Below are positions 6,440-35,507 of a stretch of 64,000 bases of DNA, in pieces. Source of the stretch: Mobula birostris (taxonomy: Eukaryota); NCBI RefSeq assembly GCF_030028105.1, contig NC_092400.1, positions 30,648,206 to 30,712,205 on the forward strand, given 5' to 3'. The notes below the pieces were generated by a model that ran no database searches, was not told the origin of the DNA, and worked only from the letters and a program-made list of their open reading frames with translations. Made by a program: the position numbers and the translations under genes. Positions within the stretch are counted from its first letter, which is position 1. Each line of letters starts with the position of its first letter.

Positions 6440-6907
6440 TCAGCCTCCACGTAGCCGGAGCAACAGAGAGATAGTGGTTTGTGGTCTGATGTTGTAGTCG
6501 GAGAGCAATCGCCCATCCTCCAACTGTTTGCCCTCGTAAATCAGGCGCTGCTGGTCGGGTCTGACCCCTTCCTGCCGATGGACCCGCGCTTTAAAATTCT
6601 GCACGGACTCAGAGGGCATTACGTCGTACGTCGTCGTTTTCCCCTTGTCATTCAGGAGAAATATCTGCATGGATTCCTCTTTCCTGACCAGCAACATGAC
6701 GGTGGGGCTGGGGTTGAGGTTGTAGTAGCTCAGACTTCTCTGGTCCTGCATCTCCACGCTTTGGCCATTTTGCACCATCAGACGCTGTTGCAAAATGGGC
6801 ACCTTGGTCTTTTCCTGGATTTTCATCTTGAGAGTCGACACTTGAATGGAAGGGTCGACATCAAGTTCGAAACCATCGCCGGTGATAAACCTCACCTGAA
6901 GTCTCAT
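6440..6907 (-). CDS. isg15: ISG15-like tandem ubiquitin-like modifier, copy 1 (155 aa)
   Basis: Two UBL domains ([10 protein letters not shown]... and [12 protein letters not shown]...[16 protein letters not shown]). Ends in LRLRGG then stop with no pro-peptide, as in fish ISG15. Acceptor ttctcctttctccacag lies 12 nt before the ATG, and an ISRE lies upstream. Confidence 0.92.
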
Positions 6908-7588
6908 CTTGTCAAATCGCTGTGGAGAAAGGAGAAGTGATTAGAGAGTTTTTACAACAGATGTGCATGAACTATGATGTATTAATATGGCATTGCCTAT
7001 AATATCAACATAATTAGACTATTTACAAAGATCTGTAGACAAGCGGGAAAAGACAGACCCCTCTTTCCCCAGCAGTTCTGAATGTGCGACAGGAATTTTG
7101 AGCCGCAATACTGACAATTGACGGGAGAGGGACTGCGTGAGCCGGTGGGTTTAAACATTTTTGAACTTGATCCGATTAGCGGCAAAAAAATGTGTAAATG
7201 TTACTCATTGGAACCGCAGTAAATGTGCAACTTGTTTAGATTTCTAAACCAGGACCATTCCAACCGCCGCTTAATAGGGAAAAAAATCACTTCTGTCACA
7301 TTGTGTTAATGGTGTACCGGGGAGAGCATTCGGACTTGTTGCATCACCGTCTGATATGGAGGGGCCACGACACAGGGTCAGAAAAAGCTGCTGAGGGTGG
7401 TAAACTCATTCAGCTCCATCATGGGCACCAACAGAGGGTATCTTCAAATGGTGGTACCTCACGGAGAAGGCATCGATCAGTATGGGCCTGCCGGTCATGC
7501 CCGCTTCTCATTGCTACCATCAGTTGGAGCCTGAAGTCTCACGCTCAACGTTTTAGTAACAGATGAACTAATGAACAGTATTTTTGTC

Positions 7589-8277: not shown

Positions 8278-8660
8278 ATTCTTTGTCGACAGTACCGGAA
8301 GTCAGGACGAATCTGAAGAAAATCTGATCCGCAGCTTTTTTTCTTTGCCCTTTATTCCGCACCGATTTTCAGCTCCGGTCCGGGTAAATCAATAGAAATT
8401 CTCCAGCTGCTGCTGATCGGTATCACCGCTCCCGCAACTCTGAGTCTCTCCGCCTCCCCCGGCTCGCTTTATCTTCTGCTCCCGTTTCTGAACGTCACCG
8501 CGCCGCTGGGCTGATCTCAAGGCCCGCTGTCGCTGTGTTGACAAACAAACCAATCAGGTTCCAGCCGAAGTTTCGTTTCCGAAAAAATCCCCGCAGTGAA
8601 TTGGAAAAGCGTGCGCCCTGTTACAGGGTTCAACGCTATCGGCTGATTCACTTTCGGATT
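8278..8660 (-). promoter_or_regulatory. Promoter and non-coding exon 1 of ISG15-like copy 1
   Basis: CpG-rich. Candidate donor GTAAGA at 8277-8272. CCAAT at 8550-8554. ISRE AGTTTCGTTTCC at 8569-8580. kB-like GGGGATTTTT at 8583-8592 (minus). IRF-like GAAAGTGAAT at 8646-8655 (minus). The TSS cannot be determined from sequence. Confidence 0.75.
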
Positions 8661-14649: not shown

Positions 14650-15117
14650 TCAGCCTCCACGTAGCCGGAGCAGCAGAGAGATGGTGGTTAGTGGTTTGAT
14701 GTTGTAGTCGGAGAGCAATCGCCCATCCTCCAACTGTTTGCCCTCGTAAACCAGGCGCTGCTGGTCGGGTCTGACCCCCTCCTGCCGATGGACCCGCGCT
14801 TTAAAATTCTGCACGGACTCAGAGGGCATCACGTCGTACGTCGAGGTTTTCCCCTTGTCATTCAGGAGAAATATCTGCATGGATTCCTCTTTCCTGACCA
14901 GCAACATGACGGTGGGGCTGGGGCTGAGGTTGTAGTAGCTCAGACTTCTCTGGTCCTGCATCTCCACGCTTTGGCCATTTTGCACCATCAGACGCTGTTG
15001 CAAAATGGGCACCTTGGTCTTTTCCTGGATTTTCATCTTGAGAGTCGACACTTGAATGGCAGGGTCGACATCAAGTTCGAAACCATCGCCGGTGATAAAC
15101 CTCACCTGAAGTCTCAT
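14650..15117 (-). CDS. isg15: ISG15-like tandem ubiquitin-like modifier, copy 2 (155 aa)
   Basis: Intact ORF ending in LRLRGG. Six amino-acid differences from copy 1 (S20A, N65S, T92S, I123V, R141K, Q143L). Same acceptor 12 nt before the ATG. Confidence 0.92.
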
Positions 15118-16475
15118 CTTGTTAAATCGCTGTGGAGAAAGGAGAAGTGATTAGAGAGTTTTTACACCAGATGTGCATGAACTATGATGCATTAATATGG
15201 CATTGCCTATAATATCAACACAATTAGACTACTTACTAAGATCTGTAGACAAGCGGGAAAAGACAGACCCCTCTGTCCCTAGCAGTTCTAAATGTGTGAC
15301 AGGAATTTTGAGCCGCAATACTGACAACTTAAGGGGGAGGGACTGCGTGAGCCGGTAAACTTAAACATTTTTGAATGTAATCCGATCAGCGGCAAACAAA
15401 TGTGTAAGTGACATTTGTAAATGCACATGTGTAAATGTGCAACTTGTTTAGATTTCTAAGCCAGGGCCATTCCAACTGCCGCTTAATAGGAAAAAAATCA
15501 CTTTTGTCATATCGCTTTAATGGTGTACCGGGGAGAGGATTCGAACTTGTTGCATCACCGTCTGATATGGAGAAGCCACGACAAAGGGTCAGAAAAAGCT
15601 GCGGAGGGTGGTAAACTCATTCAGCTCCATCATGGGCACTAACAGAGGGTATCTTCAAAAGGTGATGACTGAAGGAGAAGGCATCCATCAGTATGGGCCT
15701 GCCGGTCATGCCCGCTTCTCATTGCTACCATCAGCGAGGAGTCTGAAGCCTTACGCTCAGCGTTTTAGGAACACATGAACTAATGAACAGTATTTTCGCT
15801 ACACACACACGTATATATACTGTATCTATATGTGTGTGAGTGTGTTATTATACTTTATATCATATGCTCTGCACTGCACTGTGCTGCCGCCACAAGCTGC
15901 CAAGTTTATCGATGTAAGTTAGTGGTGATCACCCCAATTCGGATTCTAAATCGATTCTGCTGAGAATAAACTCCATTTGACTTTCAAACAAACATTCACC
16001 ACAATCCCCACCCCCCCTCGCTCTCCTGCACAGAAAGTGGTCACTTCCGACCCAGACTTCCCGAGTCACTCATTTCACACGCAATTTATTGTCATGACAT
16101 AAGCGAAGATTTCATGCACCGTTTTAACAAGACCGTCACTCTACATCAGCCGATTAACGGGTTTCACCGAACCCTGAGACGATCAATCTGAGAAGCAGGA
16201 ATGGTCATTCGGCCTGCACCGCTATTCAATGATATCACGGATGCTCTTTTCCCTCGCCGATAGTTGCCAACATTTGTAGCATATCTATTGCCCCTTTCTG
16301 CAAAGTTACAAACGTTTGTAATTTTCTACTAACTTGTTCTCGCCCCGCGTTTTGTCAACCTTAGAGACTACATTTCCCACCCGGTTCAGAGGATCTTAGT
16401 AAGTTAAATTATATTGTCAATGCTGTAAACAGCTAGATAAAAATGAGAACTTTGAGATAATCAAATAAAGTCTAC

Positions 16476-16860
16476 AATTTTTGTCGACAGTACCGGAAGT
16501 CAGGACGAATCTGAAGAAAATCTGATCCGCAGCTTTTTTTCTTTGCCCTTTATTCTGCACCGACTTTCAGCTCCGGTCCGGGTAAATCAATAGAAATTCT
16601 CCGGCTGCTGCTGATCGGTATCCCTGCTCCCGCAACTCTGAGTCTCTCCGCCTCCCCCGGCTCGCTTTATCTTCTGCTCCCGTTTCCGAACGTCACCGCG
16701 CCGCTGCGCCGATCTCACGGCCCGCTGTCGCTGTGTTGACAAACAAACCAATCAGGTTCCAGCCGAAGTTTCGTTTCCGAAAAATTCCCCGCAGTGAGTT
16801 GGAAAAGCGTGCGCCCTGTTACAGGGTTCAACGCTATCGGCTGTTTCACTTTCGGATTCC
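16476..16860 (-). promoter_or_regulatory. Promoter and non-coding exon 1 of ISG15-like copy 2
   Basis: ISRE AGTTTCGTTTCC at 16767-16778. kB-like GGGGAATTTT at 16781-16790 (minus). Consensus IRF element GAAAGTGAAAC at 16843-16853 (minus). CCAAT at 16748-16752. Confidence 0.75.
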
Positions 16861-17787
16861 GGGAATGACACAACAGCTGGAAGCCGAGAATGCGAAGCCG
16901 GATCTGGACTGAATATAACCTTAAACGTGTCATCTCTGAATACAATTACGTGGTTCATGAAATGACTACGTAAGTGATAAAATGTAACACAAGAAAACAA
17001 TTGTGCTCCATCCACAGCACCTCTATTTCCCCACCTCTGTCGCCCATCTCCCCGAGGACAGAACCGAAACAGTGTGTACCCCCGGACCTTAAGCTTCACC
17101 CCATCTATGCTTTGTGACGTGCACCATCTCCAACGTGAGCCCAGCACCTGCCGTACATCCCGCTCTCCACTTCTTTCTGCTTTCGGCATGGAGCCCTCTC
17201 TCTGAGACTCCCTGGTCCTCACATCTCTCTTGCTCCTGCCCACCTGCACTTTGTAACGGTAGGATGTGTTACAGTTGACCTCACCAGTGCTCACCCAGCC
17301 CCCATCACCAACCAGGGCGTCAAATAAGGAAACCCAAAGGAATTCTACAAATGCTGGGAATCTTGAAGAAAGCACAAAAGATGTTGGGGGGGGGGAACTC
17401 AGGAGGTCGGTTAACATCAAAGGAGGGAAATGAACAGTCCATGATTCAGTCCAGATCCTTCATCAGGATTGCACAGGAAACCAGATTAAGAAGAGAGGGG
17501 TAGGAATGGGGAGGAGGGGGTATAAATTGGTGAGGAGGAGACTGGATGGGTGTGGGAGTGGGGATGATGTGAGAAGCTGGGAGGTGATAGCTGGAAGAAG
17601 TATGGGGCTGAAGGAGAAGAAGAAATCTGATAGGAAAGGACAGTGGACCATGGAAGTAGATGGGGAACCACAGAGGTGATGGGCAGGTCATGTGGGTGGG
17701 GGAGGAAAGTGGTGAGAGGATTACTAAACTGGGGAAAACAACTAAAGGGGGGGATCCACAGGGGAGTGGGTACCTACCAGAAGTTAG

Positions 17788-18944
17788 TGTCACAATGGGG
17801 GCATTGAGAACAGATCCAAATGTGAGACACAGACACTGAAGTACAAGGAACAGGACTTGACTAGAGTAGGGACGTGACAGGATACAGACAAGGAGCAGGG
17901 ACAAGAACGCAGACAAGGAGCAAGGACAAAAACGCAGACAAGGGCCAGGACATGGACTAGACAGGGAACCTGGACAAGGAACTATGAACAAGGAGCCTGT
18001 GCTTGGAGTCCGAGCCAGAGCCTGGACAAGGACCTAGAACCTGGGTCTTGCCTCGGGCTCTGTCCCCAGAACCAGGCAAGGACATGACATGGCTACAGGA
18101 CAGGACGTGGCTGGGGTCTTAGTTCTTGAGTCTTGAGGCTAGAAGCTGGGGACTTAGAATGCGGAGGCTGATAACTCAGAGGCTGGAGCTCAGAGACAGA
18201 CTGGGAACTGTACATCAACATAGAGCTAGGACTTATCCATCGAAAAGCCAGGACTCATCTTTAACATGACACCAATACAAGACTGGACAGTACATTGACA
18301 TAGAACCAGGACTCAACTTTACCTCCACACCAAGGTGGGACAGGTCCACTTGCTGGGTAATGGCAGAACAGCCAGACTTACCCAACAGAGGCGAGGACAA
18401 GACATAACAAGACAGGACCCCCCACAGGGCAACGGCAGAATGGCCTGACTTACCCCATAGAGGCGAGGACAAGAAGAGACAAACACCAAAGAACAACAGA
18501 CAGTTTCTTCTCTGCATCGGGGTTGCTCCGAGTCGCAGTTCAGCCAGCAACCTCAGCTGGCTACGGAAACAGCCAGATCCCTACCTAGCTCAGAGCGGCT
18601 GGCAGTCACTCAGCTGGCATGGGAAACAGCCGAATCCATACCACAAAGACAGCTCCGACTGCCGACAGCAGGGCTCCATGAAGCGATGGTTCTCCAACAT
18701 GGCCTAAAGATGACAAGTAGCCGCTCTAGCCTTCCACCAGCAGATTGCTCCTAGGAAATCTTGACAAGACAAACCAGCAGCTCACACTTGAGCCCAAGGC
18801 TACTTATATTCCAAGCCCCAAGATGGGAATCAGGTGCCTATGAATAACTCAAACAAAACAAGGGACAGCTGGAAGACCCGGAATCCTGAGTCCACGGACC
18901 GGACTGTGAACCGGAATGTGGACTTTACGGACCGGACCATGACA
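17788..18944 (-). mobile_element. Solo LTR, about 1.16 kb, unit 2 only
   Basis: TGTCAC...ATGACA termini and a 5-bp TSD GTTAG (17783-17787 and 18945-18949). Internal short tandem repeats. Related to 41880-42646. Confidence 0.8.
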
Positions 18945-21099
18945 GTTAGAGGTTAATGACTACTCAGACAGAGTATGAGGTGTTCCTCCTCCAACTTGTG
19001 TTTGGCTTCATCGTGGCAGTGTCCTGAGCAGTTTTTCCAGGTGAGCCGGGCATCCACATCCATCTCCTATGGTCTTGTTTATTGTATCAAGTGCTTCCGA
19101 TATGACATCTTCTACATTGGTGAGACCAGTGCAAACTAGGCCTTCCTCTCTTACCAGATTCCTTCATCTGCAGTCCTTTATCGCCTCCAGCCATCACCTC
19201 CCAGCTTCTGTCCCCATGTCCACTCCTCCTTCTTCCATCTGCCTATCATCCCTTCTCACCTGGATCCAGTTTTTGGTCCACCCCTTCCCCTCACTTCTTA
19301 ATATTGGCCATCTCTGTTCTGCCTTTCAGTCCAGATAAAGAATGTCACATTGACTGTCCATTTCCACCCATAGATGCTGCCTGACATACTGAGTTCCTCC
19401 AGTATCTCTTCTGGAGCTTCACATTTATCAAGTTCTGAGTTGATTGAGAAGTTTCCATGTTGGAAATTCCTGGGACCCTACACCAGCGGCACAAGTGATT
19501 TGCAGTGAGACTTACCTCACTTTCCCACTCTTTGGTGCTCCTGTGGTCAAGATAAATGGAATGACTCCATCTATCTTCCCTTCTGCTTATTCCTCTGAAA
19601 CACTGAACAGATGTAAATGTTCATTTCCGGGACTTGGTCACTTTGTCAGATTGTACTTGTTCTGTTGTGAAAAAGTCACCAGAGAGACACTAAAGTTTGT
19701 GGATATAGAAGTGTTTTATTCAACAAAAACCAGCAGCAGGCATCATATTGAGACACTTTTGTAAGAGGAGGCCTGCTCGACCCAATATTACATGACATTT
19801 TATATGCTGAAGATCAAAGGTAACAACACAGCAATTCTACCATTTCAATGTATGTACAATACTTCCTTTTGAATTACATATAGTTATCACACGCCATCTC
19901 CTTTGCACCCACACTCCAGATACCCAAAATGAATATTAAACTCCACTGACTCTCGGCTGCATTCATGCATATGCAGGCTTCTGAGGTCTGATTGTTCTGA
20001 GCTGTGCCTTAAATTCAATCTACAATCCACATTCAAGTCTGAAGATTAGTTGCTGGTGAAATTAATATTTGCCAACTTCAGAATACACCCTAACAGTACT
20101 CCTTTAGAGAGTCATTGCAATTCAATGCAGAAATGGCCACCATGTCCATACCAACCACTAAGCTCCGATCTTATACCCATCCTACACTCATCCCTTGTTT
20201 ATTTCATAGGACCTTGTGTGGGAGACCCATATCTCATTCATTAACAAAAAGTCTTGGCAGAGAATGTTGGTAAGATGTTCTTACCCAAAATCTATTGGTG
20301 CAATTCTTCATAGAGAGCATCCTCACATCAGCCATTACTATCTGGTTTGGTGCAATACAGAAAAACTACAGCCAACTGTCAGGTCAGCAGAAAACATTAT
20401 TGGCTGCAGTCTACCAACAATGCAGGGGTCGTATGTGTCCAAAACAAAGAAACAGGCGGAAAAAGTCATTGTGGATACTTCCCACCCAGCAAACGTCCTT
20501 CATTTGTTTGCTTTGATTATGAGAAGATTGGAGTGCAGGAGTAAAGATGTCTTACTCATTTATTTAGTACCATTATTACACCACAGCTGGAGTATTACGT
20601 AGACGATTATCTCTTTAGACAAGAAAGAAAATACATGCTATTGGGGTAATGTGGTGAAGATCAACTCGACTACCTTCTGGGATAGGGAGTTTACCAGTGA
20701 GTATTTATAGGCAAGAAATGAAGGCCCAGAGATGGTCTGTCCTGAGGTTGGAGGCCAGTCTAACTGTGTGAGTGGGTGTGAAAGGGGACTGTTTTGCTTT
20801 TATTGTTGCTGTTGCTACTTTTACTGTGCAGATGAACATTGGTAATTTGTGGGCTGCCCCCAGCACATCCTTGGGTTATGTTGCATGATAACACAAATGA
20901 CACAGTTCACTGTATGTTCCAAGTACATGTGATAAATAAATTTGAGTCTGAAGTCTGCAATCTCCAGACATCAGCAGAATGAAAAGTGACCTCATTTAAA
21001 GTTACCGATTCCTACTGGCCTTGGCAGTTTGTATGCAGAAGGGATGTTTCCTCTGGCTTAGGGCTTTAGAATCTGGGGTCACTGTCTCAGAACAAAGTC

Positions 21100-22185
21100 A
21101 CTTGTAAAAATGCCATCCTCTTCTCTCAATTCCAACACCTCTGCCCGCGCCTGCTCTCAGGATGAGGCTTTTCATTCCAGAAAAAATGAGATGTCTTCCT
21201 TCTTTAAAGAAAGGGACTTCCCTTGCTCCACCATCAATGCTGCTCTCACATGCACCTCTTCCATTTCATGCATGTCTGCCTTCACCCATCCCCCTGCCAC
21301 CCCATGAGGGATAGGGTTCCTCTTGTTCTCACTTACCACCCCATCAGCACAAAATTTTCCATGATTTCCGCCATCTCTAACAAGATTCCACCACCAAACA
21401 CATCTTCCCTCACCTCCACTTTCCACTTTCTGTAGCGATCACTCCCTATGCAATTCCCTTGTCCACTCACCCCTCTCCACTGATGTCCCTCCTTGTACTT
21501 GCCTTTGCATGTGGAACAAGTGCTACACCTACTCTAATGAGGCACTATTCATGGCCCTTTCCAGGGGAGGCGACACATCACCTTGACTCTGTTGGGGTCA
21601 TCTACTGTATCTGGTGTTCCTGGAGTGGCCTTCTGTACATCGGTGAGACCGCTTCACCGAGCATCTATGACCCATCTGTTGGAAAAAGCAGGATCTCCTG
21701 GTGGCCCCCATTTCAATTCTACTTTCCAATCCCATTCCGACGTGTCAGTCCATGGTGTCCTCTACTGCTGCGATGATGCCACACTCAGGTTAGGGGAGCA
21801 ACACCTTATATTTCATTTGGGTAGCCTCCAACCTAAAGGCATGAACATCAATTTCTTGAACTTCAGGTGGTAATTGCTCCCCCCCCCCCGCCCCCGCTTC
21901 ACCATTCCTCATTCCCATTTTCCCCTCTCACTTTATCTCACCTCGCTCTGGTGCTCCTCCTCTTCCCTTTCTTCCATTGCTTTCTGTCCTCTCCTATCAA
22001 ATTCCCCTTCTCCATCCCTTTCCCTCTTTGATCTATCAGTTTCCCAGCTCTTACCTTCACCTCTCTCCCTCTCCCAGTTTCACCTATCACCTACCACCTT
22101 GTACAAACGTTTGTACTTCTTCCTCCCCTCCCCCCACCTTCTTACTCTAACTTCTCATCTCTTTTTTCCAGTCCTGATGAACAGT
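21100..22185 (+). mobile_element. Penelope-like element 3' fragment (GIY-YIG endonuclease remnant)
   Basis: Peptides GVIYCIWCSWSGLLYIGET and LRLGEQHLIFHLGSLQPKGMNINF, followed by a pyrimidine-rich terminus ending CCAGTCCTGATGAA. Confidence 0.8.
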
Positions 22186-22249
22186 CTCAGCAATTTTGGA
22201 CCCCGCCATATCTTCATCTTGGAGTATGACCATCCCACTTCCCCAGAAG

Positions 22250-22727
22250 GTGGTGAATGGCACAGCACATCACACAAACCAATCTTCCATCCTTGGACTC
22301 ACTTTACACTGCACACCGTCGGAGCAGTGCTGCCAGGATATTCAAGGACACGGCCCACCCAGCCAACACACTTTTTGTCCCTCTTCCCTCCGGGAGAAGG
22401 CTCAGGAGCTTGAAGATTCATATGGTCAGATTTGGGAACAGCTTCTTTCCAACTGTGATAAGACTGCTGAACGGATCCTGACCCAGATCTGGGCCATACC
22501 CTCCAAATATCCGGACCTGCCTTGGTGTTTTTTGCACTACCTTACTTCCAATTTTTCTATTTTCTATTTATGATTTATAATTTAAAATTTGAATATTTAC
22601 TATTTTTAATATTTATTATTTGTAATCCAGGGAGTGGGAAGCGCAGAATCAAATATCGCTGTGATGATTGTACGTTCTAGTATCAATTGTTTGGCGACAA
22701 TAAAGTATAATGTATAAAGTATAAAGT
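22250..22727 (+). mobile_element. Rex1/Babar-like 3' end
   Basis: Highly similar to 11650-12092. Ends with AATAAAG and a (TATAAAG)-like repeat tail. Confidence 0.7.
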
Positions 22728-24069
22728 AGCACTGCCCCAATGCTCCCTGTCCTTCCTCTTACTTGCCACACCAGCTGAGAAGGACAAGCTTTGTGGCTTA
22801 CAAGGAATGGACAGCATGCAAAAAGAGCTGGCAATCCCTGAGGAGCATTGTCCAAGGCCACAGATCAATACCCTTTCATTGTTCCAAAGGGAGCCAACGC
22901 TGTGTACCAAATCCCCTTTTGGACCCCACCATATCTTCATCTTGGAGTGTGACCATCCCACTTCCCCCAGAAGGTGGTGAATGGTGATGACAGAATCACA
23001 AGAGGGAATGGCTCCCCACACCGCCCCACTGCAGCAAAATGATCCCCCAGGCTGCTGTTCTCAAAACAGGGGAGCACTTTGTGCGGAGATGAACCTCTGC
23101 TGCTTGACTGACACAGGTAGAAGACACAGGCAGTAGCAGTGAGAGTAGGAAGTACTAGTGGTGGGGACTTGCTGAGTGAACAGGATATTCAGCGCCTTTT
23201 TCTAGTTCCCAGCATATTGTACCGGAGGATACAAAGTCAGCATCAAATAGAGAGTGGTGACGTGGACCAGGTAACGAGAGGGTTTAGGGTTTGGGCACTT
23301 GTAGAGAAAGAAGTGAAAATGATGGGATCAGAATGAAGCAGAGTGTGAGGGATGTGACAGGCATGCCACTGTGAGAAGGGTTTGTAGGTGGTAGAGGAAG
23401 GGAAATCCTATTCTTTGAAGAAGGGAGATATCTCTGATGCTCTGCAGATCTGTTCCTAGGATGAGGCTTTCCTCTCCAGAACCTTGGAGATGTCTCCCCA
23501 CCCCTACTCAACACAGGGATCGGACTCTCCATTATCCTATCTCCTCCAAGCTTCTCACCTCATTCCCTTTCCCCCTCACCTTATAGCTTGCATTCCTCCC
23601 CCTCCCCCAATTTATTATTCTGCATTATTCCCATTTCTTTCCAGTCTGGGCCCCAAACATAGGCTGTTTATTCCTCTCCATAGCTGCTGCCTGACCTGCC
23701 GAGTTCCTCCAGTATTTTACCGTGTGTTGCTCTGGATTTCCAGCATCTGTAGACTCTTGTGTTTAGACTGAGCCTCAGCAATGTGAAGGTCGATTTTAAT
23801 TTCATACGCACAGGTGCAATGAAAAACTTGCGCAGGCACAAAGTACAGACAGGGACAGGAGAGGAACAGTGAAGAGGACAGGGCCCCTGAACAGTGGGTG
23901 GAGGGATTCAGACTCTGACATACAAGTAAGTTCATTTTGAGATGCGAGACGTGTTTTAGAGGAGGGCAGTTTGCCCCGTGGGTTGGAATGTTATTCCGGG
24001 TGTCTGAATAACTAGAGCGAGAGTCTGAAGGAAAGATGCTTTTTAAAAATAAAAACAAGTGATCAGCGC

Positions 24070-24300
24070 ATATTGAGTCAGCATTGATGGGGCCAGGAAA
24101 AGCGATGGAAAGAAAAGGAACCGAAACTACGGCGTTATCCACTGAAATCGAAATGGGCGCGGTGCTGCCATTAATCAGCTCGAGCGATGACAGCCAACCA
24201 GAGCAGTGACGTGCATAAAATGTAATGTACCGGCAAATTTCACCATATTAGAATAATTTGAAGGCGGGGCTGGCGACCGGCTTATAAGGAACTTCTCAGC
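24070..24300 (+). promoter_or_regulatory. OASL promoter
   Basis: AP-1 TGAGTCA at 24074-24080. ISRE-like GGAACCGAAACT at 24117-24128 and GAAATCGAAA at 24144-24153. TGACGT at 24207-24212. GC box at 24262-24270. TATAAG at 24283-24288. Confidence 0.75.
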
Positions 24301-24356
24301 GGTGGAAGCAAGAAGTTTGGACGCCGCCTGTGAGGAAGAACGTACGCTCAGTAACG

Positions 24357-24527
24357 ATGGCGCTACACGAAATAGACCCCAAGAAACTGGACGACTTCAT
24401 TAAAAAGAACTTGGAGCCAAGCGGGTTTAATGTCGAGGTGAGAGAGGCCATGAACAGGATCTGCGAGTTTTTAAGAAATCAGTGTTTCACCAAACAAACC
24501 GACGTTAAAGTGATCAAAGCCGTTAAG
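24357..24527 (+). CDS. oasl: OASL exon 1 (coding part)
   Basis: [21 protein letters not shown]...KVIKAVK. Start context acgATGG; donor AAG|gtgagt. Confidence 0.9.
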
Positions 24528-27500
24528 GTGAGTCGGTTAGTTTTTAAATGAAAAATACTTACCGAGTGGTACTTAACTACAATTCACTTTTTAAAACAGC
24601 AAGCGCTTCTTTTCCTCGTGAATGAAGATGCTGATAAATTAATCTACTCATAAAAATAAGAGATAAGCTTAAGAGTAACAAGGTAAACATTATATAGGAT
24701 AAATTGTAATCCAATATACCGAATTATATAAATGTAATCAACATCAAGAGACATTAAGTAATCCTATATAGTAAGAAAGCCAAATTTAAAAAGTAGTTTT
24801 TTGGAAGTGTTGTGAAACTAGTCTGGCGTATCTCAGTCACTGAGTTTTTTTTTTGCAAGATTTTTGCTGTATCAGAGCAAACGGTCGCATCACCAGTTCT
24901 TGTATGCTTGACTCTAGGAACTTTAAGCAAACCAGTATTCACGGATTTAAGATTACGATTAGGGACGTAAGGGATATATTGAGGAGCTAGATTATTTAGA
25001 GTCATGTATACAGTTAAAATTATTTTTACGTCACCATGTGCTAGACTGGGGCTCATACAATTTAAAGTTTTACACAGGGTATATTTAAGTAAAGCCAGGC
25101 TTGCTGACATATATCCCGGGACAGACGCTGGCTGTGACAGGTGTTCCTTCTCTCCGGCTGGTTTAGTGCATGCAGTTTGGTCTTGCCCTCGGCTTGATGG
25201 CTATGGGACACTGGTTTTTAAATTATCAGAGAGGTTTTGGAGGTGACACTGAAATCTTGCCCGCTTATAGCTGTATTTGGCGTGGCAGATGATGTTTTAG
25301 GTTTAAATGCAAGCCAGTCGGATAGCATTGCATTTACATCGCTATTGGCCCGTAGGAAAATCTTGCTGGTCTGGAAATATGCCACTCCCCCATCTGCTGC
25401 TGCTTGGTTAGAGGACGTAATGTTTTTTCTAAAATTAGAAAATATTAAATTCACTATGAGGGGGTCTGTGAAAAAGTTCTATTCGAAATGGGGACCTTTC
25501 TTGTCATATTTTGGGAGTCTTAAGGAATTACCTACGAGTTGAGGGCATTTGATTGTACTTGGGAAGCTGCCTCCCTCTTAACACGCATATGGTTTACCTC
25601 ACAGGGTGGTTGACGAATTGTAATATGAGTGTATTTTGGATCATCTGACATGTCGTGGATGTGTGTGGGCCTTCGTCTTGAAGTGGTGTGGGAGTATGGC
25701 TGTGAAATGTCCGCACTTGTATTTCTGAATTGTTGTATTGTAAATACATTAGCTGCCATGGTATGTTCGAGGAGGGCGGGTGAGGGGAGGTTTGTTTAGG
25801 GGTAAGATATATTTTAAAAATTATTTTAAGACTAATCCCATAGGACACGGGCAGCCAGTGTAATGATGGCAAAACTGGTGAATGGTTTTCATTTTTTTTA
25901 AAAACTAAAGGCGAAGCTGTCAACAGTTTTGTAATGCAGTCAGTGTGGTTCGGTCCAAAGGTCTTTGTTAAATTGTGTACCTGCCCAGGTCCAATGGGGG
26001 ATCTTATCAACTTGCCACAGCTTTCTCCCTCTTGGGCAGCAATTCAAGACAAATCCGACTTGTTTCCACCACAGGTCTGAGTGCTCTGTGGTGGATGAAG
26101 AGTTCTGAGTGGAAAGCACGGATCTACACTACCGGCAAGAAAATTAATTTCAGGGCAGAATATGGCGACATGTATATGTACTTTGATAATAAATTTGTCT
26201 TGAGCTTTGGAAGTTCCACTGGGAGTAAGTCTGGAGTTCCCGCTTTTTTAAAAAAACTTTCTGCCTCGCTGCTTGAAGTAGGCGCGGTGTATGGCGAGTA
26301 ATTTACGAGGTGGTCCCCTGATCCTTGTGTGAAGCTTCTGTCAGCACCCAGTGCATGACCCCGAGGCGCTTAGCAATGAGTGAAAGGGAAGTGGTCTCCA
26401 GCTGAGTGGCCACTTTGAGAATGTCTTCCTTGAGGTGGAAATGTTGCTGGGCGGTTAACGTGTGCGCGATGATGAACACCGGGCTTCCGTGAGAAAGGCC
26501 AGCAGCGGTGAGGCAAGGCCGGAGAAGAATTTTCTCTTTTCCAAGTCTGCTGTTTATTAAAGGGGCAGGACAGCAGCCGGTGAAGTGATGGAAGCCGGAC
26601 AGATCAGGGAGGGTTCAGCGGGAATGACTCTGCAGGAGTTGTGTCCACCTGACACTCGCAACATCAACAGAAGAAGAGGTGAAGTCCTGCAAGGTCAATT
26701 CAGAAATTTAGGCAGAAAGTCCTAAAAAAAAACAGTACCTTAGGGTTGTAATTTCAGGATTACTCCCAGAGCCCTGGGCTAAGAAGGCAACAAATCGGAA
26801 GATAATAGAATTAAACCTGTGGCTAAGGGGATCGTGCAGGAGGGAGGGCTTTGGATGCATGGATCATTGGGCTCTCTTCCAGGGCAGCTGGGAACTGTAG
26901 ATGAAAGATGGATTACACGGGGGCAAGTAAGTAATCCCGCCCCCCGTTCAAGAATCTGATGGTTGAGGGGTAATAACTTCCTGAACCTGGTGCTGTGAGT
27001 CCTGAGGCTCCTGTACCTTCTTCCTGATGGCAGCAGCGAGAAGAGAGCATGTCCTGGGTGGTGGGGGTCCCTGATGATGGATGCTGCTTTCCTGTGACAA
27101 TGCTCCATGCAGATGTGCTCAATGGTGGGGAGGACGTGACCCGTGTCTTCAGGGCGTAACAAGGCATACATTCGGCTTCAACAAATTGTTGTTTGTCAGT
27201 GAATATGGGCTTAGAATGCATGAAATTATGCTAAATTTTAAAAAAAATGAAATACAAAAAAATTAGGGCGTTAATTTTGGTGGCAGTGTTCTGGATAGGA
27301 TGGAGGTATATACAAAGGTTACCTCTCCATTTCCTTGGAAAGACTGCATTTGTGTCCTCCAGTGAGGACAAGGCTGGATGGTAATAGCGATGACCAACTG
27401 TCAAATGTCTTCTATGAACGTAGTGCATGTCTACTTGGGGATCTCCTTAAAGAGTGTTTGTTCAACTGCCTCCCTTCTGGATTTTCAGGAAAAGGGGAAA

Positions 27501-30500
27501 ATTCTGAACTAAAGGAGCAGAACAAAGCTCCACCATGTTAATCCTGCACACAAAACATATGCTGGCTATGTTAAACGTGATTTCAATTCTAATTCTGGGA
27601 ATGTTTGAAAACAACAATAATTAGATGTGTAACTTTTTTTTTGTTGACAGGGTGGATCATCAGGAAAAGGAACAGCTTTAAAAAATAGCTCAGATGCAGA
27701 TCTCGTCGTCTTTCTCAGTTGCTTCAAAAGTTTCCAGCACCAGAGAGACACCAGGCATGAAATTCTTGAGGGAATTCAGGCAATGCTGGATAAATATTCT
27801 CAAAGCCTTGCATATCAAGTCGATAATATCAATATCAACATCATAAAGCAAAGTACCACATCGCCAAAATCTCTGAGCTTTGAGCTGCAATCAAAGAAGA
27901 GTTCAGAGACCGTGTCGTTTGATGTTCTGCCAACCTATGATGCATTAAGTAAGAATTAATAGCAATGATACGTTGACTATAATTAATAGTAATGTTACAT
28001 CTCAAATGTAATTTTAATTCTTCTGTCACTGCTTCTGTGGATAGGCGGTTTGAAAGGAGCTTGTCTGATTTGCTCTCTTCAGAGTCTTATTCTGAGTCAA
28101 GTTGTTGCTGCTGTTGTTGAGGAAGAAAATGCACTCAGTGACCATTTTATTCAGTACTTCCTGTAATCTTGGCCTTCTGCTGCTGTAGCCCATCCACCTC
28201 AAGTTTCGAAGTGTTGTGCATTCACAAATGTGCTCCTGCATGGCTCTGCTATAACACAAGGCGATTGAATTACTGTCACCTTCCTGTCAGCTTGAACCAG
28301 TCTGGCCATTTTCCTCTGATGTCTCATTAACAAGGAGAGTTCACCCACTGAACTGTGCTCACTGGACGTTTTATCTTTTTTAATGTATTCTAAGCCATCT
28401 CTAGTGACTATTGTACATAAGAATCCCAGGAGATCGGCATTTTCTGAGATACTCAAACCACCCTGTCTGGCACCAACAATCATGCCACAGTCAGTCACTT
28501 AGAATGCATTTCTTCCCCATTTGGATGTTTGGTCCAAACAACAACTGAACCTCTTGACCAGGACTACATACTTTTGTACATTGAATTGCTGCTATGTGAT
28601 TGGTTGATTTGATATTTGCATTAACAAGCAGGTGTACCTAATAAAGTGGCCACTGAGTGTAGATTACAGTTCACTTTTTGTCTGTATATGGCACAGAAGA
28701 TCCTTTCATAGGAGAAATAACAAGGAATATTAACCCTAAATGTTACTGATATTGCTTTACCACTGACATTAAACCAGTTTGATAACAAAATGAATTCCAG
28801 GGGAAATCTTGGGTAGCAAGTCTAAAACTTGCTCTTAAAAGATAATATCTGCCTTTTTCCTTTCCTTTCATAAGAAAGGGATTCATTTTCTTGGCCACTC
28901 TTACCAAGATGCAAAAAGCATTAGGCATTACCTTGGGTTAAATTTACAGGTGATTCTTGGCAGAAATAGAGTCACGGAACACTACAGCACAGAAACAGGC
29001 CCTTCAGCCCATCTACCCCATGCTGAACTATTATTTTGCCCAGTCCTATCAACTTGTACCTGGACCACAACCCTCCATACCACACCCATCTATGTATCTA
29101 TCTGAATTTCTTTTAAATGTTGAAATTGAACCCACAGCCATCATTCTGCTGGCAGCTCATTCCACACACTCACAACCCTCTTGTGTGAAAAAGTTCCCCC
29201 AAATATTCCCCTTAAACCAGGGGTTCCCAACCTGGGGTCCACAGGCCCCTTGGTTAATGGTGCATGACATAAAAAAGGTTGGGGACCCCTGCCTTTAAAA
29301 AAAATTGCTTCTCAACTTTAAACCATAACCTCTATTTCTAGTGTCACCCAACCTCAGTGGGGAAAAAAGCCTGCTTGCTTTTACCCCATCTATACCGGTC
29401 ATTATTTTGAATACCTCTATCAAATCTCCCCTCATTCTCCTTTGCTTGTTATGCAAACTTCAGCAAACTCTTTCTGGGAACCTTTGGGATGGTGGAAAAT
29501 ATCCTGAGGTTAAATAAACTGGAGTGAATCCAATAGAATGGCCTGTTTGGTCTTGGAAGTGATACTTGACCAGATATTAATCAATAGTCTTTTGACCATG
29601 TTCTCATTCATCATTTTATTTCTTGCAGCACCACTGCATAATACAAGCAAAGCACATCTCGAACTAATCCAATTTGCAAACAATAACGAGATGACAGATG
29701 GAGAATTTTCTGCTTGTTTTACGGAACTTCAGAGATCATTTGTGAAGCAGCAATTTCCAAAGGTTAAAGACTTGATTCGCCTGCTGAAATATTGGTACAA
29801 GGAGGTGAGTGACGGAAGAAAGTGATAATGGTTAATCATTGAAAGCCTATAGAAGGGTTGTTGTATCAAACCTAAAATGCTATCTTCCTTTGATATCTCA
29901 GATTACACCTTCTTCCTCTTTGGCATTTCCTCAGGATCATGGAGTAAGTGTGTCCCTAGTCCAATGCATCAGGTTCTCAATACAGTCTTGAATATCCCTT
30001 CTCCAAGTTTGAATGGTTATGGACCGAAGATCCCCAGAATCTTTGGGGATGTTGCTATTTGCTTTTGTCTGCCAAGGACCTGCCCAATAGCCAATGCAGG
30101 AAACCCATGAGATACCATTGTATGTTTGTTGGTAGAACACAGCTCTCCAATGAAATCACTGACTTCCATGGTACAATTTTGGATTGAGTCCCTAGTTTCC
30201 AGAGTATCCTCCCAGCATGCAACCTGCTTCAGGCTAGAAATGGTCAGAAAGACATTTCTAATTGAATTCAAAATTTATTTTTGATTCAATTTCTCATTCG
30301 GTTGAGATTTAACCAAAGGATGTGATGGTCCTCTCTGCTTGACTGATGGCACCACAGCACTATCAGAGATTGGACAACATGTACTCCCCAACTGACTGAC
30401 AATATACAGATCATTTCGTCATTTCCATCATTGCCCTGTGTGAAATCTTGCTTTACACAAATGGGGTACTTAAATCCAAGTCTTTTCTCTATATGTTCTT

Positions 30501-33500
30501 CTGGTACTCTCAGAACATTCATAAGGCCAAGAAAACAGGAGGAAGAGTCAGCCCATGGGAGTTTGACTTCAGGCTGTGATCGTGGCTGACCTGACCTAGA
30601 TCTCAGTGCAGATTCAGCAATTTGTGTGGTGGAGATGTTGAGATAGGGGCCACTCGGGAATGATCCCATGTAGCCATTGGTCTAGGTGTGGTCTTGGCAT
30701 GTAACCTCAGGGAGGCTGTTTCATCAGAGAAAATAATGAAGATTCGAAGTATAGAACCAAAACAGAGGGTAATGAGTGTGCTTAACATCACATTTGCTTA
30801 TTGGTGATTGTCAATAATTCTCCCTAGTATGTCAAGCCACGGAAGTCAGAGCTGAGAAATGGAGCACGACTGCCTGCAAAGTATGCCTTAGAGTTATTGA
30901 CCATTTATGCCTGGGAGGAAAGTAATCATCAAGAGAGATTTGACATGGCTGAAGGGTTCCGCACAGTCCTGGAACTGATCTGCAGATATCAGGATCTATG
31001 TATCTACTGGACTAACTACTATGATGTCAATAATGCAGTTCTTGCAGACTTCATAATCAAGAAACTCCACAACAGAAGGTAAGGTTCCCAACCACACTTC
31101 AAACTATGCCAAATAATGGGACCCTATGTTTTTAAATTGGGTTCACCTTCTGGATTCTTGTACATACAGGTCCAATAGAAAGTATTACATGGCATCACAT
31201 TCTTAAAACATAAGACCACAAGGTATAGGAGCAGAATTAGGCCATTTGGCCCATCAGGTCTGCTGTCATTTTATTATGGCTGTTTCAATTTTCCCCTTAG
31301 CCCCAATCTGCTGCCTTCACCCGTATCACCTCATGCACTGATCAGTCAAGAATCTATCAATCTCTGCCTTAAATATACATAAAGGCTTGGCCTCCACAGT
31401 TGGCTGTGGCAAAGAATTCCACAGTTTCACCACCCTTTGGCTAAAGAAATTCCTCCTTATTTCCAATCTAAAAGGACACCCTTCTATTCTGGGGCTGTGT
31501 CCTCTGGTGTTAAACTCTCCCACCATAGGAAACATCCTCTCCACATCCACTCTATCATGGCCTTTCACCATTCATTAAGTTTCATTGAGATCACCCTCAT
31601 CCTTCTGAATTCTAGTGAGTGCAGGCACAGAGCCATCAAATGCTCTTCATATGACAAACCATTCAATCCTGGAATCATTTTCGTGAACCTCCTTTGAACC
31701 CTCTACATTTCCGAAGGTAACATCTGAATGTATCTCTTAATGTTCCTCATTTCCTAACTAACCACTGTTGCCTACCTTACTGAGATGATTGACTTCAGAG
31801 TCCTCAGCCTTATTTACAATTCTCTACATCATTACAGTCTACCGTCTGTCACCTCACCATTTTTTGCCTCCTCAAGCTCTTTTAGCCAGTGTTTCTATTT
31901 CACTTTTTGGCCATTTTCCATCAGTAGTAGTATTTTCTGTCAGCTTTCTCTCACCTTATGGAGTTTTCCGTAGAGTACTTCCTCATTTCAAAGTTTGACT
32001 CAAAATCTCAGAGTACATTCCTCACATTTTGTGGATGTCCATTTCTGTTTCTGTTGTGATGGCAGATGGGGAATGTCTAGATCTGTATGCATTGTGACAT
32101 GTTTTCAGTGATACATCTGTTTGAATTATTGTTACCATGTTTGGGAATACTGTGATGATTAATGACAAATTCTGAGGCTGCGGAGGAATGGAGAGTTGAG
32201 GCCACAGACACTACCATTGTAGCGGACTAGAGCTGGGCAGGAAAGTTGATTCCTTTTTCTGCTCATTGTGCTGCCTGTGTATGGGATGGGGAATGGGGGG
32301 CTTTGATGTTCTGATGTTCCTGTCATTCATTCGTTTTTTTTAATTTTGTGGATGTCTGTGAAGAGTAAGAATTTCGAGTTGTGTACTGTATACTTTCTCT
32401 GATAATAAATTGAACAATTTTGTCATAAACTGATGGAGGATTAATGCAAATTGATCACAAAGATGGCCATTATACGCAGCGCGTGTACTGTCAGCAAATA
32501 GCTCAAAGTTCAATGTTGTCATTGGAATGGTTTTATTTTTCAGACCGATCATTCTTGATCCAGCTGATCCAACTGGAAACGTGGCTTCATCAGATGGTTG
32601 GAATGTGATGAAAGATGAGGCCAGGAAATGGCTAAGCATGCCTTGTGTCTCTAATGTTGAGGCATGGGATGTCCAGGTAAGAGTTTGAATAATTGATTTT
32701 CAGATATAAGGGAGTGGAGATACATTATTCTCCACTTTCTTTCACCCTGCCAGTGTCTGGCTACTGATAAACATCCCAGACTGCCTCTGCCCAGGGGATA
32801 TGCTACAGTCTGTCGCAGGCCTTCTGATTTTGCACTGCTTGAATTGTCCTCTATGGTAATTTGCAGTCTTTGGTGCTGAAAACCAGTCACCTTACCTCAC
32901 TATGTTGCACATTATTGGGTGGAGTTTCGAGCTAAGCAAGGTCCTGGTGAAGATGACACATGTATTACGTGCAGATTTGAATGCCTTGTGACATGGTTCT
33001 ATTTCATTATCTAGGTTAATCATCCTAAATGTTTAAAGCCTAACCATTTTAAAATACAGTTGATTACTACGTAATACACAACCGAAGCAGGGGGTGACCC
33101 AGCTTTTGGGGTCTTGAACTGTGGATTTATACAACATGTTTAATATTGGAAAAAAACTTCTTGAGGTGGCAATCTTATTGAAACCCCTCAAATATTGAAA
33201 GGGCTAGACTGTGGACGTGGAGTGGATGCTTCCTACAGTGGAGACTCTAGGACTAGAGGCCAAGCCTCAGAATAGAGGGACATTCATTCAGAATGGCGAT
33301 GAGAAGGAACTTCTGTAACCAGAGGCTGGTGAATGTGTGGAATTCATTGTCACAGACAGATGTGGAGGCCAAATCACTTAGTGTATTAAAAGAGGAGTTT
33401 GATTGGTTCTTGATCAGTCAGGGCGTCAAAGGTTAAGAGGAGAAAGCAGAAGTATGGGGTTGAGAGGGAAAATATATCAGCCATGATAGAATGGTGAAGC

Positions 33501-35507
33501 AAACTCAATGGGCTGAATGGCCTAATTCTGTAGCTATGTCTTATGGATTTAAGTTTTCAATGATGTGTTTGGGAAAGCTGATCAGCAGTAGTATCTGGGG
33601 CTGTGGAGGAATGGGCAGTTGAGGTTATAGACATAACTATTTTACCCAGGTCAAGCCAAAAAAGTTCAGTTCTGGTTGATTTCTTTTTCTCCTACTCCTT
33701 GTGTTCGATTCACTAAGTTGCTTGACGACAACTGGTAGAAATGATTATAGAATTCAACAGAAAAACTGAGTTACAACAAGTGAAATTAACAAGTATCTAA
33801 CCTGTAACTTGATGATCACACCAAAGTGGGTTCCTTTTTTGATTGTATCTTCAGCTGTGTAACATTAATGAGACGTGGTTTAATATCACAGGCACATGTC
33901 ATGAAATTTATTATCTTTGCGACAATGCAGTACATAATAGAGGAAAAAATGAACTACATTATGTGTGTGTGTATATTATATCTTAAATAGTTGAATTAAA
34001 TAAGTAGTGCAAAAATGAAAGTTGTGGTGTAGTTTTCGTGGCTTCAATGTCCATTCAGACAGGAAGAAGTTGTTGGGTGTGACCTTCAGGCTTCTGTACC
34101 TCCACCCTGATGGTAGCAATGACAAGAGGGCATGTCCTGGGGAGGAGGTTCTTTAACGAAGGACGCCACCCTTCTGAGGCATCGTTCCTTGAAGATGTCC
34201 TGGATACTACGAAAGCTAGTGCCCATGATGGAGCGGACTAATTTTACAACTCTGTGCTGGTTACCTAATCCTGTGCAGTAGCTCCCCTCCCCCACACCGC
34301 CCATACCAGACGGTGATGCAGTCAGCTAGAATGCTCTGTCGAAATTTGCAGGTGTTTTTGGTGACAGGCCAAATAGTGGAGAATGGAGCTCCAAATGAAC
34401 AGCAAATCAGAGTTGTCTGCTGATTGAGACCATGATATACAAGATATTAAGAGGAATAGATAGAGTGGACAGCCAACGCCTCTTCACCGGGGCACCACTG
34501 CTCAATACAAGAGGACATGGCTTTAAGGTAAGGGGTAGGAAGTTCAAGGGGGATATTAGAGTAAGGTTTTTTACTCAGAGAGTGGTTGGTGCGTGGAATG
34601 CACTGCCTAAGTCAGTGGTGGAGGCAGATACACTAGTGAAGTTTAAGAGACTGATAGACAGGTATATGGAGGAATTTAAGGTGGGGGGTTATTTGGGAGG
34701 TAGGGTTTAAGGGTCGGCACAACATTGTGGGCCAAAGGGCCTGTACTGTGCTGTACTATTCTATGTTCTATGACAGCCTACTCTGCACTATTCTAGCTCG
34801 TATTCCCACAGCACGCATCCACCCTCACTTCAGCCTTTGCAATTTATTCCACAGAGTGCTCTTGGTGCAAGTGTAGTTTTGCACACTAACGACACCCATA
34901 ACTACCCTTCAAGTTGTCGTTTCCCATCTCCCTCTTTTGTTTTCTGTCGCCTCTGAAGTATAAAAGGAACATATTTTACTTCTGCCCATTTTTGTTTTGT
35001 TTACCTCAGCCAGTGAAGACATTCCAAGTCACGGTCACGACCCTGAATGGTAACTCGTTACAGCAAAATGCCAGCATTTACAACAAGGTCTCTGAGATCA
35101 AACGTGGCATCCAGGAAAGGTGGAACATCCCAGCTTTTAAGCAACGCCTGCTATTCAAAGACACCATTCTGGATGATAGGATCACCTTGCTGGATGCCAA
35201 GATCTTCTTTGATGCAGAAATCCAGCTGCTCACCCTGAGTGTAATGGAGATATTTGTCGGGATAGACGGGCGTAACCTGACGATCCAGGTTTTGCCAAGT
35301 GACAAGGTTTCAAGTTTAAAAGCTGAAATTGAATCCCTGGAGCGAATTCGGCGAAGCCAGTACTATTTAACTTTTCAATCAACGCCGCTTGAAGATGAAC
35401 GTACACTGCAATCTTATGGCATTAAGCAATATTCTACCATCCTTGTCAACCTGAGAGTGCGTGGTGGCAGCGAGATTCAACTTTCCAATGCAGAGGATCC
35501 TAACTAA
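24357..35507 (+). CDS. oasl: 2'-5'-oligoadenylate synthetase-like protein with C-terminal tandem UBL (508 aa), join(24357..24527,27651..27948,29629..29804,30828..31078,32544..32676,35010..35507)
   Basis: All introns are GT-AG with compatible phases (0,1,0,2,0), giving a 1527-nt spliced frame with no internal stop. OAS signatures: [66 protein letters not shown]. The last exon encodes two UBL domains. Confidence 0.95.
25000..25800 (+). mobile_element. L1/Tx1-like LINE 3' fragment nested in an antisense L2-like fragment (about 24750-26010)
   Basis: Peptide [15 protein letters not shown]...CDRC...LVHAVWSCP is the C-terminal CCHC region. The flanking minus-strand peptide is [12 protein letters not shown]. 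Confidence 0.65.
27651..27948 (+). CDS. oasl: OASL exon 2 (P-loop and catalytic D72, D74, D148)
   Basis: ttgacag|[22 protein letters not shown]...[11 protein letters not shown]|gtaaga. Not in the ORF track; translated by hand. Confidence 0.93.
28132..28659 (-). mobile_element. Non-autonomous Tc1/mariner element in OASL intron 2
   Basis: TIRs CACTCAGTGACCATTTTATT / AATAAAGTGGCCACTGAGTG followed by TA. Remnant HTH peptide [22 protein letters not shown]. Confidence 0.8.
29218..29291. mobile_element. Tiny hAT-type MITE (74 bp)
   Basis: TIRs CAGGGGTTCCCAACCT / AGGTTGGGGACCCCTG and an imperfect 8-bp TSD. A related decayed copy lies at about 45970-46050. Confidence 0.6.
29629..29804 (+). CDS. oasl: OASL exon 3
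   Basis: ttcttgcag|...[35 protein letters not shown]|gtgagt. Confidence 0.93.
30828..31078 (+). CDS. oasl: OASL exon 4
   Basis: ctccctag|YVKPRK...[16 protein letters not shown]...[10 protein letters not shown]...LCIYWTNYY...KLHNR|gtaagg. Confidence 0.93.
31205..31700 (-). mobile_element. CR1 LINE 3' fragment
   Basis: Peptide [10 protein letters not shown]...TRGH...[17 protein letters not shown]. Confidence 0.75.
32544..32676 (+). CDS. oasl: OASL exon 5
   Basis: tttttcag|(R)[30 protein letters not shown]...AWDVQ|gtaaga. Confidence 0.93.
34432..34771 (+). mobile_element. CR1 LINE 3' end
   Basis: Peptide [16 protein letters not shown]...TRGHGFK...[14 protein letters not shown], with a (TTCTATG) tail. 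Confidence 0.8.
35010..35507 (+). CDS. oasl: OASL exon 6: tandem UBL domains, LRVRGG and a 12-aa tail
   Basis: ttacctcag|[14 protein letters not shown]...QRLLFKD...MEIFV...[39 protein letters not shown]. Confidence 0.93.
   Translation, partial: PVKTFQVTVTTLNGNSLQQNASIYNKVSEIKRGIQERWNIPAFKQRLLFKDTILDDRITLLDAKIFFDAEIQLLTLSVMEIFVGIDGRNLTIQVLPSDKVSSLKAEIESLERIRRSQYYLTFQSTPLEDERTLQSYGIKQYSTILVNLRVRGGSEIQLSNAEDPN

Follow-up and report, generated by a model that had tools for sequence, protein, structure and literature searches.

Clustered ISG15 and OASL genes with a common splice-acceptor offset in the ray Mobula birostris

The window analysed here is a stretch of 64,000 nucleotides (nt) from the ray Mobula birostris (contig NC_092400.1, positions 30,648,206 to 30,712,205). 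This 64-kb window contains two minus-strand ISG15 genes and a single plus-strand OASL gene in a head-to-head arrangement (Table 1). The genes themselves are of known kinds, ISG15 encoding two ubiquitin-like (UBL) domains and OASL an OAS catalytic unit followed by two UBLs. The splice acceptor was found to lie 12 nt before residue 1 of UBL1 in both ISG15 copies (exon starts 6919 and 15129) and likewise in OASL (35010), as the original prediction, made from the letters of the window, had claimed. That prediction took the ISG15 coding exon and the OASL terminal exon to share both splice position and phase as the relic of a local exon duplication. As far as offset and linkage go, the two genes are truly connected, and common descent of the two exons is probable.

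Splice junctions and identity of the window genes

The ISG15 acceptors, on the minus strand, read cag followed by CGA TTT GAC/AAC AAG ATG. Splicing was followed in contigs from four runs guessed to be RNA (none is recorded as RNA, and one looked like DNA). Acceptor 15129 was joined to the GT donor 16476 in one of these runs, with 30 letters on the short side, and to a donor mapped at 8296, in exon 1 of the other copy, in two of the four runs, from two studies; among the joints listed in the contigs, none was at 6919. Exon 1 shows two donors approximately 18 nt apart (16476-16494 and 8278-8296, minus strand). Both copies of exon 1 lack an ATG and are closed by an in-frame TGA a short way ahead of the donor; the 12 nt of ISG15 are therefore 5' untranslated region (5'UTR), which makes the distance an offset and not a phase. 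The first of the four 'codons' is TGA in two of the nine genomic ISG15 copies. It should also be noted that three Hemitrygon ISG15 models carry a 10-residue in-frame N-terminal extension across these four 'codons'.

In OASL, the acceptor consists of a polypyrimidine tract with cag ending at 35009, and the exon opens with CCA GTG AAG ACA, followed by TTC (F) at 35022. The OAS exon before it stops on a codon boundary at 32676, where a gtaaga donor follows, which makes the intron phase 0, and exon residue 5 (F) aligns without gaps to M1 of ubiquitin by HMMER. This junction (32676-35010) rests on canonical splice signals together with gene models, one of which (P0123) possibly derives from the same assembly. 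The phase-0 acceptor and the gapless start of UBL1 claimed for OASL were thus recovered, as was the placement of both UBLs and the C-terminal RGG in a single open frame of the last exon in all three genes. The claim of a common phase did not stand, given the untranslated 12 nt of ISG15, and it carries little weight because OASL has no choice but phase 0, given the OAS exon that precedes the intron. Of the junctions, the RNA-like contigs bear out the ISG15 acceptor 15129, that of OASL being a prediction from splice signals and models.

The ray ISG15 protein has 155 residues, matches the Pfam ubiquitin family and aligns continuously over residues 3-155 to human and mouse ISG15. LRLRGG ends both window copies; elsewhere in the genome one copy ends in LRLCGG (L009) and one has an internal stop (L008). 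The position of human ISG15 F41, an aromatic interface residue (PMC8764230; here and below, most papers are cited for the sections consulted), is occupied by L in the window copies and by F in a divergent paralogue and three sharks. An aromatic of the F41 type was considered as a clean shared character and rejected, being F in two ray OASL copies and variable in other sharks. For OASL, Pfam matches on the exons and model P0123 give an NTase and OAS1_C unit followed by tandem UBLs, and the exons match OAS1, OASL and chicken OASL UBL structures. The closest named proteins to the window genes are from Mobula and Hemitrygon. Motifs resembling the interferon-stimulated response element (ISRE), called against the general ISRE consensus, were found as GAAANNGAAA at 16777 and 16853 of ISG15 copy b, and at 24144 upstream of OASL, inside the space between ISG15 b and OASL.

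Table 1. Coordinates of ISG15 and OASL features in the window
Feature	Position	Strand	Remarks
ISG15 copy a, exon 2	6440..6919	-	12 nt 5'UTR, 155-codon di-UBL ending LRLRGG
ISG15 copy a, non-coding exon 1	8278..8580	-	Donor 8296 in contigs, second candidate donor 8278, ISRE-like motif 8579
ISG15 copy b, exon 2	14650..15129	-	5'UTR 15129-15118 (12 nt), 155-codon di-UBL ending LRLRGG
ISG15 copy b, exon 1 (non-coding) with proximal promoter	16476..16780	-	Donor after 16476; ISRE-like motifs 16777 and 16853
ISG15 b–OASL intergenic space	16781..24356	.	About 7.6 kb, genes divergent
OAS catalytic unit	24357..32676	+	Five exons; junctions from splice signals and gene model
OAS unit exons (approximate)	24357-24527, 27651-27948, 29629-29804, 30828-31078, 32544-32676	+	
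OASL last-exon acceptor AG and spacer	AG 35008-35009; four codons P-V-K-T 35010-35021	+	Splice signals, NCBI model P0123
OASL UBL1 and linker	35022..35243	+	F at residue 1
OASL UBL2	35244..35507	+	Ends LRVRGG (35468), then 12-residue tail, stop

Gene cluster, acceptor offset and OASL spacer

A search of the genome returned nine full-length ISG15 copies and six di-UBL OASL last exons, all within 30.56-30.91 Mb of the same contig. Matches to OAS exon D numbered eight genome-wide, seven of them within this interval, and the ISG15 and OAS genes are interleaved, with nine ISG15 copies and seven OAS exon-D matches inside 0.35 Mb. The 12-nt offset is present in 9/9 ISG15 copies and 6/6 di-UBL OASL exons, which are paralogues and not independent. 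A P2X receptor gene lies approximately 65 kb from the first ISG15 copy and is divergent from the OAS genes. Agrin, which we take to be the neighbour of human ISG15, is found on a different contig.

Other UBL-first genes of the ray, judged on splice signals only, show acceptor offsets of 3 and 6 nt (polyubiquitin), 5 nt (a ubiquitin-fusion-type gene) and 9 nt (an exon which we assume to be UHRF-type). Short acceptor-to-start offsets are normal among UBL-first genes, and a rough estimate puts an exact 12-nt match by chance at a few percent. A single unbroken coding exon preceded by a short 5'UTR is what polyubiquitin genes ordinarily have, and alone it does not link ISG15 and OASL. Outside the ray, the GT-AG intron of seabass ISG15B, counted at its stated 115 bp, ends 12 nt before the ATG (PMC9680060, supplement 1), which is an independent datum from another species.

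The corresponding feature of OASL is a four-residue spacer before UBL1. With the junctions in other species placed by protein homology at a W-x-V-x motif, this spacer was found in 12 of 13 chondrichthyan di-UBL tails, the remaining one being ambiguous, and in 11/11 bony-vertebrate UBL1 tails examined (two lungfish, three coelacanth, axolotl, amphisbaenian, finch, two marsupials and bat). It is also seen by eye in the birds and mammals shown in the supplement of PMC6307210. The same acceptor position relative to the domain holds for the ray, for seabass ISG15B and for the OASL spacers, with human ISG15 excepted. OAS exons with UBL2 only have longer spacers. A tail exon with UBL2 only was observed in caecilian, axolotl and coelacanth OAS (P0244, P0261, P0386) and one with UBL1 only in others; the OAS tail exon would appear to have been trimmed repeatedly.

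Two coelacanth models (UniProt H3BDF0 and RefSeq XP_014342322; P0254, P0389) consist of an OAS unit, four residues and then an ISG15-type di-UBL with I, not M, at residue 1. The coelacanth di-UBL shares 14/32 and 14/27 ISG15-derived states, compared with a null mean of approximately 2 (472 UBL domains), and each of its two domains falls with ISG15 in the tree (88/82 and 98/94). Real fusion or fused model alike, it places an ISG15-type exon in frame behind OAS at the same offset. The linkage of ISG15 and OAS is direct in the ray genome, with indirect signs in Heptranchias, coelacanth, boa and Pogona. In the shark Heptranchias, the ISG15 and OASL RefSeq accessions are near-consecutive (…044, …046, …047) and lie on contigs of equal length. 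OAS models of boa (P0280) and Pogona (PMC6307210 supplement) run via junk linkers into ISG15, which would place ISG15 next to OAS there. Squamate OAS models with UBLs are probably annotation fusions with an adjacent ISG15 gene, and the UBL clade that PMC10400998 calls 'recently acquired' may be a product of such fusions.

A number of other features of the cluster were observed. Between 30.56 and 30.69 Mb two blocks can be seen, of six ISG15 genes on the minus strand and OASL on the plus strand, then of three ISG15 genes (minus) and OASL (plus), which looks like a segmental duplication. The two damaged ISG15 copies mentioned above are divergent copies, one starting each block. Reverse-transcriptase fragments, presumably of the long interspersed nuclear element (LINE) type, fill the spaces between genes, for example at 12275-13450 of the window and in many other places, and an apparently intronless UBL-encoding frame lies at contig 30248213-30248419 (L058), 0.3 Mb from the cluster. 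The window OASL (35451-35468) and its nearest duplicate end in LRVRGG, LRLRGG being retained by three others. At the far end of the cluster, the final OAS gene (approximately 30,895,000-30,905,200; L039, L040; model P0124) has a single-UBL exon and a CaaX-like end, W-C-T-L-L, which we take to resemble the prenylated end of human OAS1 p46. CaaX-like OAS ends also occur in other sharks and rays, coelacanth, caecilian and amphisbaenian, a distribution suggesting that membrane-targeted OAS may be ancient.

Origin of the di-UBL exons

In a tree of 42 domains that included bony vertebrates, UBL1 and UBL2 each formed a clade (89/93 and 93/90), neither of which took in ubiquitin, the NEDD8-like pseudogene or the UBTD-like domain; this is the pairing of UBL1 with UBL1 and UBL2 with UBL2 that had been predicted. 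For the trees, 22 of the 64 aligned rows were left out (near-duplicates, partial outgroups and a few long or gappy rows), and teleost and mammalian ISG15 are not represented, the ISG15 search having been swamped by polyubiquitin and the UBL1-only search having reached nine chondrichthyan proteins. The ray ISG15-type domains group with boa ISG15 in both domains. A derivation of mammalian ISG15 UBL2 from a shark-type OASL UBL2 was set aside, as boa ISG15 UBL2 groups with shark ISG15.

A profile of OASL UBL2 scored on eight ISG15-type UBL2s gave z values of 1.7-4.5, with 7/8 at least 3.0, a null maximum of 3.4 and 0.6 for ubiquitin; the same test for UBL1 gave a patchy signal. Two position-matched rare states, picked after the alignment was viewed, are Y15 in UBL2 (7/8 ISG15, 11/11 bony OASL and 18/470 unrelated UBLs) and a loop insertion in UBL1 (7/8, 9/10 and 16/469, respectively, with no UBL2 having it). 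The 472-domain null set included two domains of the skate OASL exon P0361, which were dropped for the Y15, loop-insertion and profile tests and for the second and third draws of unrelated UBLs described below. Ray OASL UBL2 scored 49.9 bits with the human ISG15 C-lobe and 49.2 bits with ubiquitin. A metagenome scan for fish ISG15 DNA returned one unrelated ubiquitin locus only, and the ESM Atlas gave generic ubiquitin clusters only.

Several of the results weigh against a common origin. The 12-nt offset is not invariant: the human ISG15 acceptor lies 3 nt, one codon, before UBL1 residue 1, a distance that follows from a start codon in human exon 1 and from the pairing of human residue 3 with ray M1, and the teleost support for 12 nt is one gene, seabass ISG15B. 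For coelacanth, boa and Pogona, the fusions are known as gene models and not as transcripts. The predicted clades appear in the best tree, but approximately unbiased (AU) tests did not reject clades uniting ISG15-UBL1 with ISG15-UBL2 and OASL-UBL1 with OASL-UBL2 (p 0.22 and 0.28), and the clades were unstable when 14-15 unrelated UBLs were added. Over three such draws the non-mammalian UBL2 group was recovered at 99/96, broken, and recovered at 72/0, the UBL1 group was recovered at 61/72 and then broken twice, and mammalian OASL UBL2 fell outside the UBL2 group in all three. A chondrichthyan-only tree was star-like and without support, with neither group present. Long-branch attraction and convergence (on a conjugating UBL2 and a packing UBL1) bias the tree toward the favoured pattern. 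Shark OASL has Y15 in 0/9 UBL2s and the loop insertion in 0/9 UBL1s, and the ray OASL domains are no closer to ray ISG15 (23% and 36%) than to ubiquitin (30% and 41%); ray OASL is the least ISG15-like member of the set. Comparison of ISG15 and OASL at the DNA level gave nothing beyond short repeat-like matches.

The offsets, gene orientation, copy numbers and ISG15 splice are direct observations, and with them it is considered likely that the di-UBL exons of ISG15 and OASL share one origin, in either direction. To this extent the exon-duplication reading is supported, by the seabass offset, the coelacanth exon, the linkage and the tree. Of the two directions that it left open, one has about an even chance: in early jawed vertebrates, a duplicate of the exon of an ISG15-like gene would have come to stand at the end of an OAS gene next to it. 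A polyubiquitin-type gene, with a non-coding exon 1, an intron and a single coding exon, would first have given rise to a free-standing di-UBL gene, whose acceptor lay 12 nt ahead of the start codon. A local copy of the di-UBL exon would then have been placed behind the last OAS exon, where it could be spliced in frame from the phase-0 donor because 12 is a multiple of three. The 12 UTR bases would have become four codons, leaving Met1 free to drift (F, I or V, with M in one lungfish copy). OASL may have kept the spacer under coding constraint, ISG15 keeping the 12 nt in ray and seabass and moving to 3 nt in mammals. All four steps are inferred. Capture by OAS is favoured, at an evenly balanced level of confidence, since polyubiquitin genes already have the ISG15 layout, ISG15 keeps Met1 and its UBL2 is nearer to ubiquitin (54%, compared with 41% for OASL UBL2). 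The non-coding first exon of ISG15, which the original prediction called new in one of its two scenarios, need not be, as the polyubiquitin layout already contains it.

The opposite direction, in which a di-ubiquitin entered the OAS terminal exon first and ISG15 arose from it afterwards by duplication, with an interferon-responsive exon 1 either gained or borrowed, is rather unlikely. An OAS with UBLs is the ancestral jawed-vertebrate architecture (PMC10400998), some OAS exons that lack a UBL likewise have a proline directly behind the junction, so that the spacer could be OAS-derived, and a multiple-of-three offset is expected if the 12 nt were formerly coding; the three Hemitrygon models even read the four codons in frame behind an upstream Met. 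This course nevertheless requires Met1 to survive within the fusion and a new exon 1 to arise, when polyubiquitin genes already supply the layout, and the less derived domain is the UBL2 of ISG15. Independent origins of ISG15 and the OASL tail from polyubiquitin, each with an inherited short distance from acceptor to start, with the 12 nt a matter of chance and the genes neighbours only later, are also judged unlikely. The offsets of 3-9 nt in polyubiquitin and other UBL-first genes, the differing human offset, the AU results and the unstable clades all fit such an account, but the exact offset, the linkage in several lineages, the rare states and the UBL2 profile signal would then all have to be coincidental or convergent.

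Exchange between genes of separate origin would have swapped or converted linked exons, thereby equalising the acceptor and making bony OASL tails ISG15-like. Bird and lungfish OASL UBL2 do share 7-9/27 ISG15-derived states, compared with 2-5 in shark OASL UBL2, chicken OASL is matched along its full length by a profile of shark ISG15 (108 bits), and the coelacanth model would be an outright swap. However, the 42-domain tree unites the OASL domains of sharks and bony vertebrates to the exclusion of ISG15 (UBL1 95/97, UBL2 82/83) and the four-residue spacer is already present in shark OASL, and this explanation is held to be very improbable. A more tentative extension of the shared origin, possible though doubtful together with its consequences, is that a single interchangeable exon cassette of an ancestral OAS-ISG15 locus was repeatedly swapped at the phase-0 junction. 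A natural OAS-ISG15 fusion would then be expressed in coelacanth, self-conjugating OAS would be ancestral and not a bird substitute for lost ISG15, and the 'recently acquired' squamate OAS UBLs would be the adjacent ISG15 gene.

Comparison with known systems

Published accounts, in the sections consulted, have OAS 'acquire' UBLs before jawed vertebrates and ISG15 'emerge' at that time, with neither origin explained. OAS-UBL has been described as ancestral and squamate UBLs as 'independently acquired' (PMC10400998), and the OASL UBLs have been put down to 'domain fusion of UBL', with no source named and ISG15 unmentioned in the text consulted (PMC6307210). OASL has been reported as structurally like ISG15 and self-conjugating, the sections consulted giving no hits for synteny, exon or phylogeny (PMC8764230). 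ISG15 is stated to have emerged in gnathostomes, zebrafish and human ISG15 being called syntenic (PMC5381560), a synteny that sits awkwardly with the ray locus because agrin is on another contig. The sections consulted of bioRxiv 693333, PMC11354881, PMC6019448, PMC13030082 and PMC12234341 hold nothing on ISG15/OASL exon origin. No proposal of a shared exon or ancestral linkage was found in the literature searched, which left subscription papers outside its scope, so that prior mention is possible. If true, a shared exon would trace ISG15 and the tail of OASL to one origin and would account for the likeness of bird OASL to ISG15 in both structure and conjugation, and the question is testable by a simple table of acceptor offsets and neighbours. 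The analysis further points to ISG15 arrays that go unnamed in sharks and rays, where 'polyubiquitin-like' is the NCBI name for most copies, and probable OAS-ISG15 annotation fusions in reptiles.

The ray ISG15 genes resemble teleost-type ISG15 in their two UBLs, LRLRGG end, two exons, 5'UTR intron and ISRE-like motifs (PMC9680060). They are unlike known ISG15 in forming nine tandem copies interleaved with OAS genes, and unlike human ISG15 in having agrin on another contig. The ray OASL resembles the OASL/OASa.U class, with one OAS unit, two UBLs, an RGG motif and a short tail (PMC10400998), and a conjugatable LRLRGG has been described in avian OASL (PMC8764230). Shark OASL differs from bony OASL in being without the UBL1 loop insertion. 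Polyubiquitin genes of the UBB/UBC type are alike in holding all units in one coding exon, with the acceptor 3 and 6 nt before the ATG in the ray, and are unlike ISG15 and OASL in their five near-identical repeats, other offset and other contigs. Like human OASL, the ray OASL has a divergent P2X receptor gene nearby, the human pair OASL and P2RX7 presumably having the same divergent arrangement.

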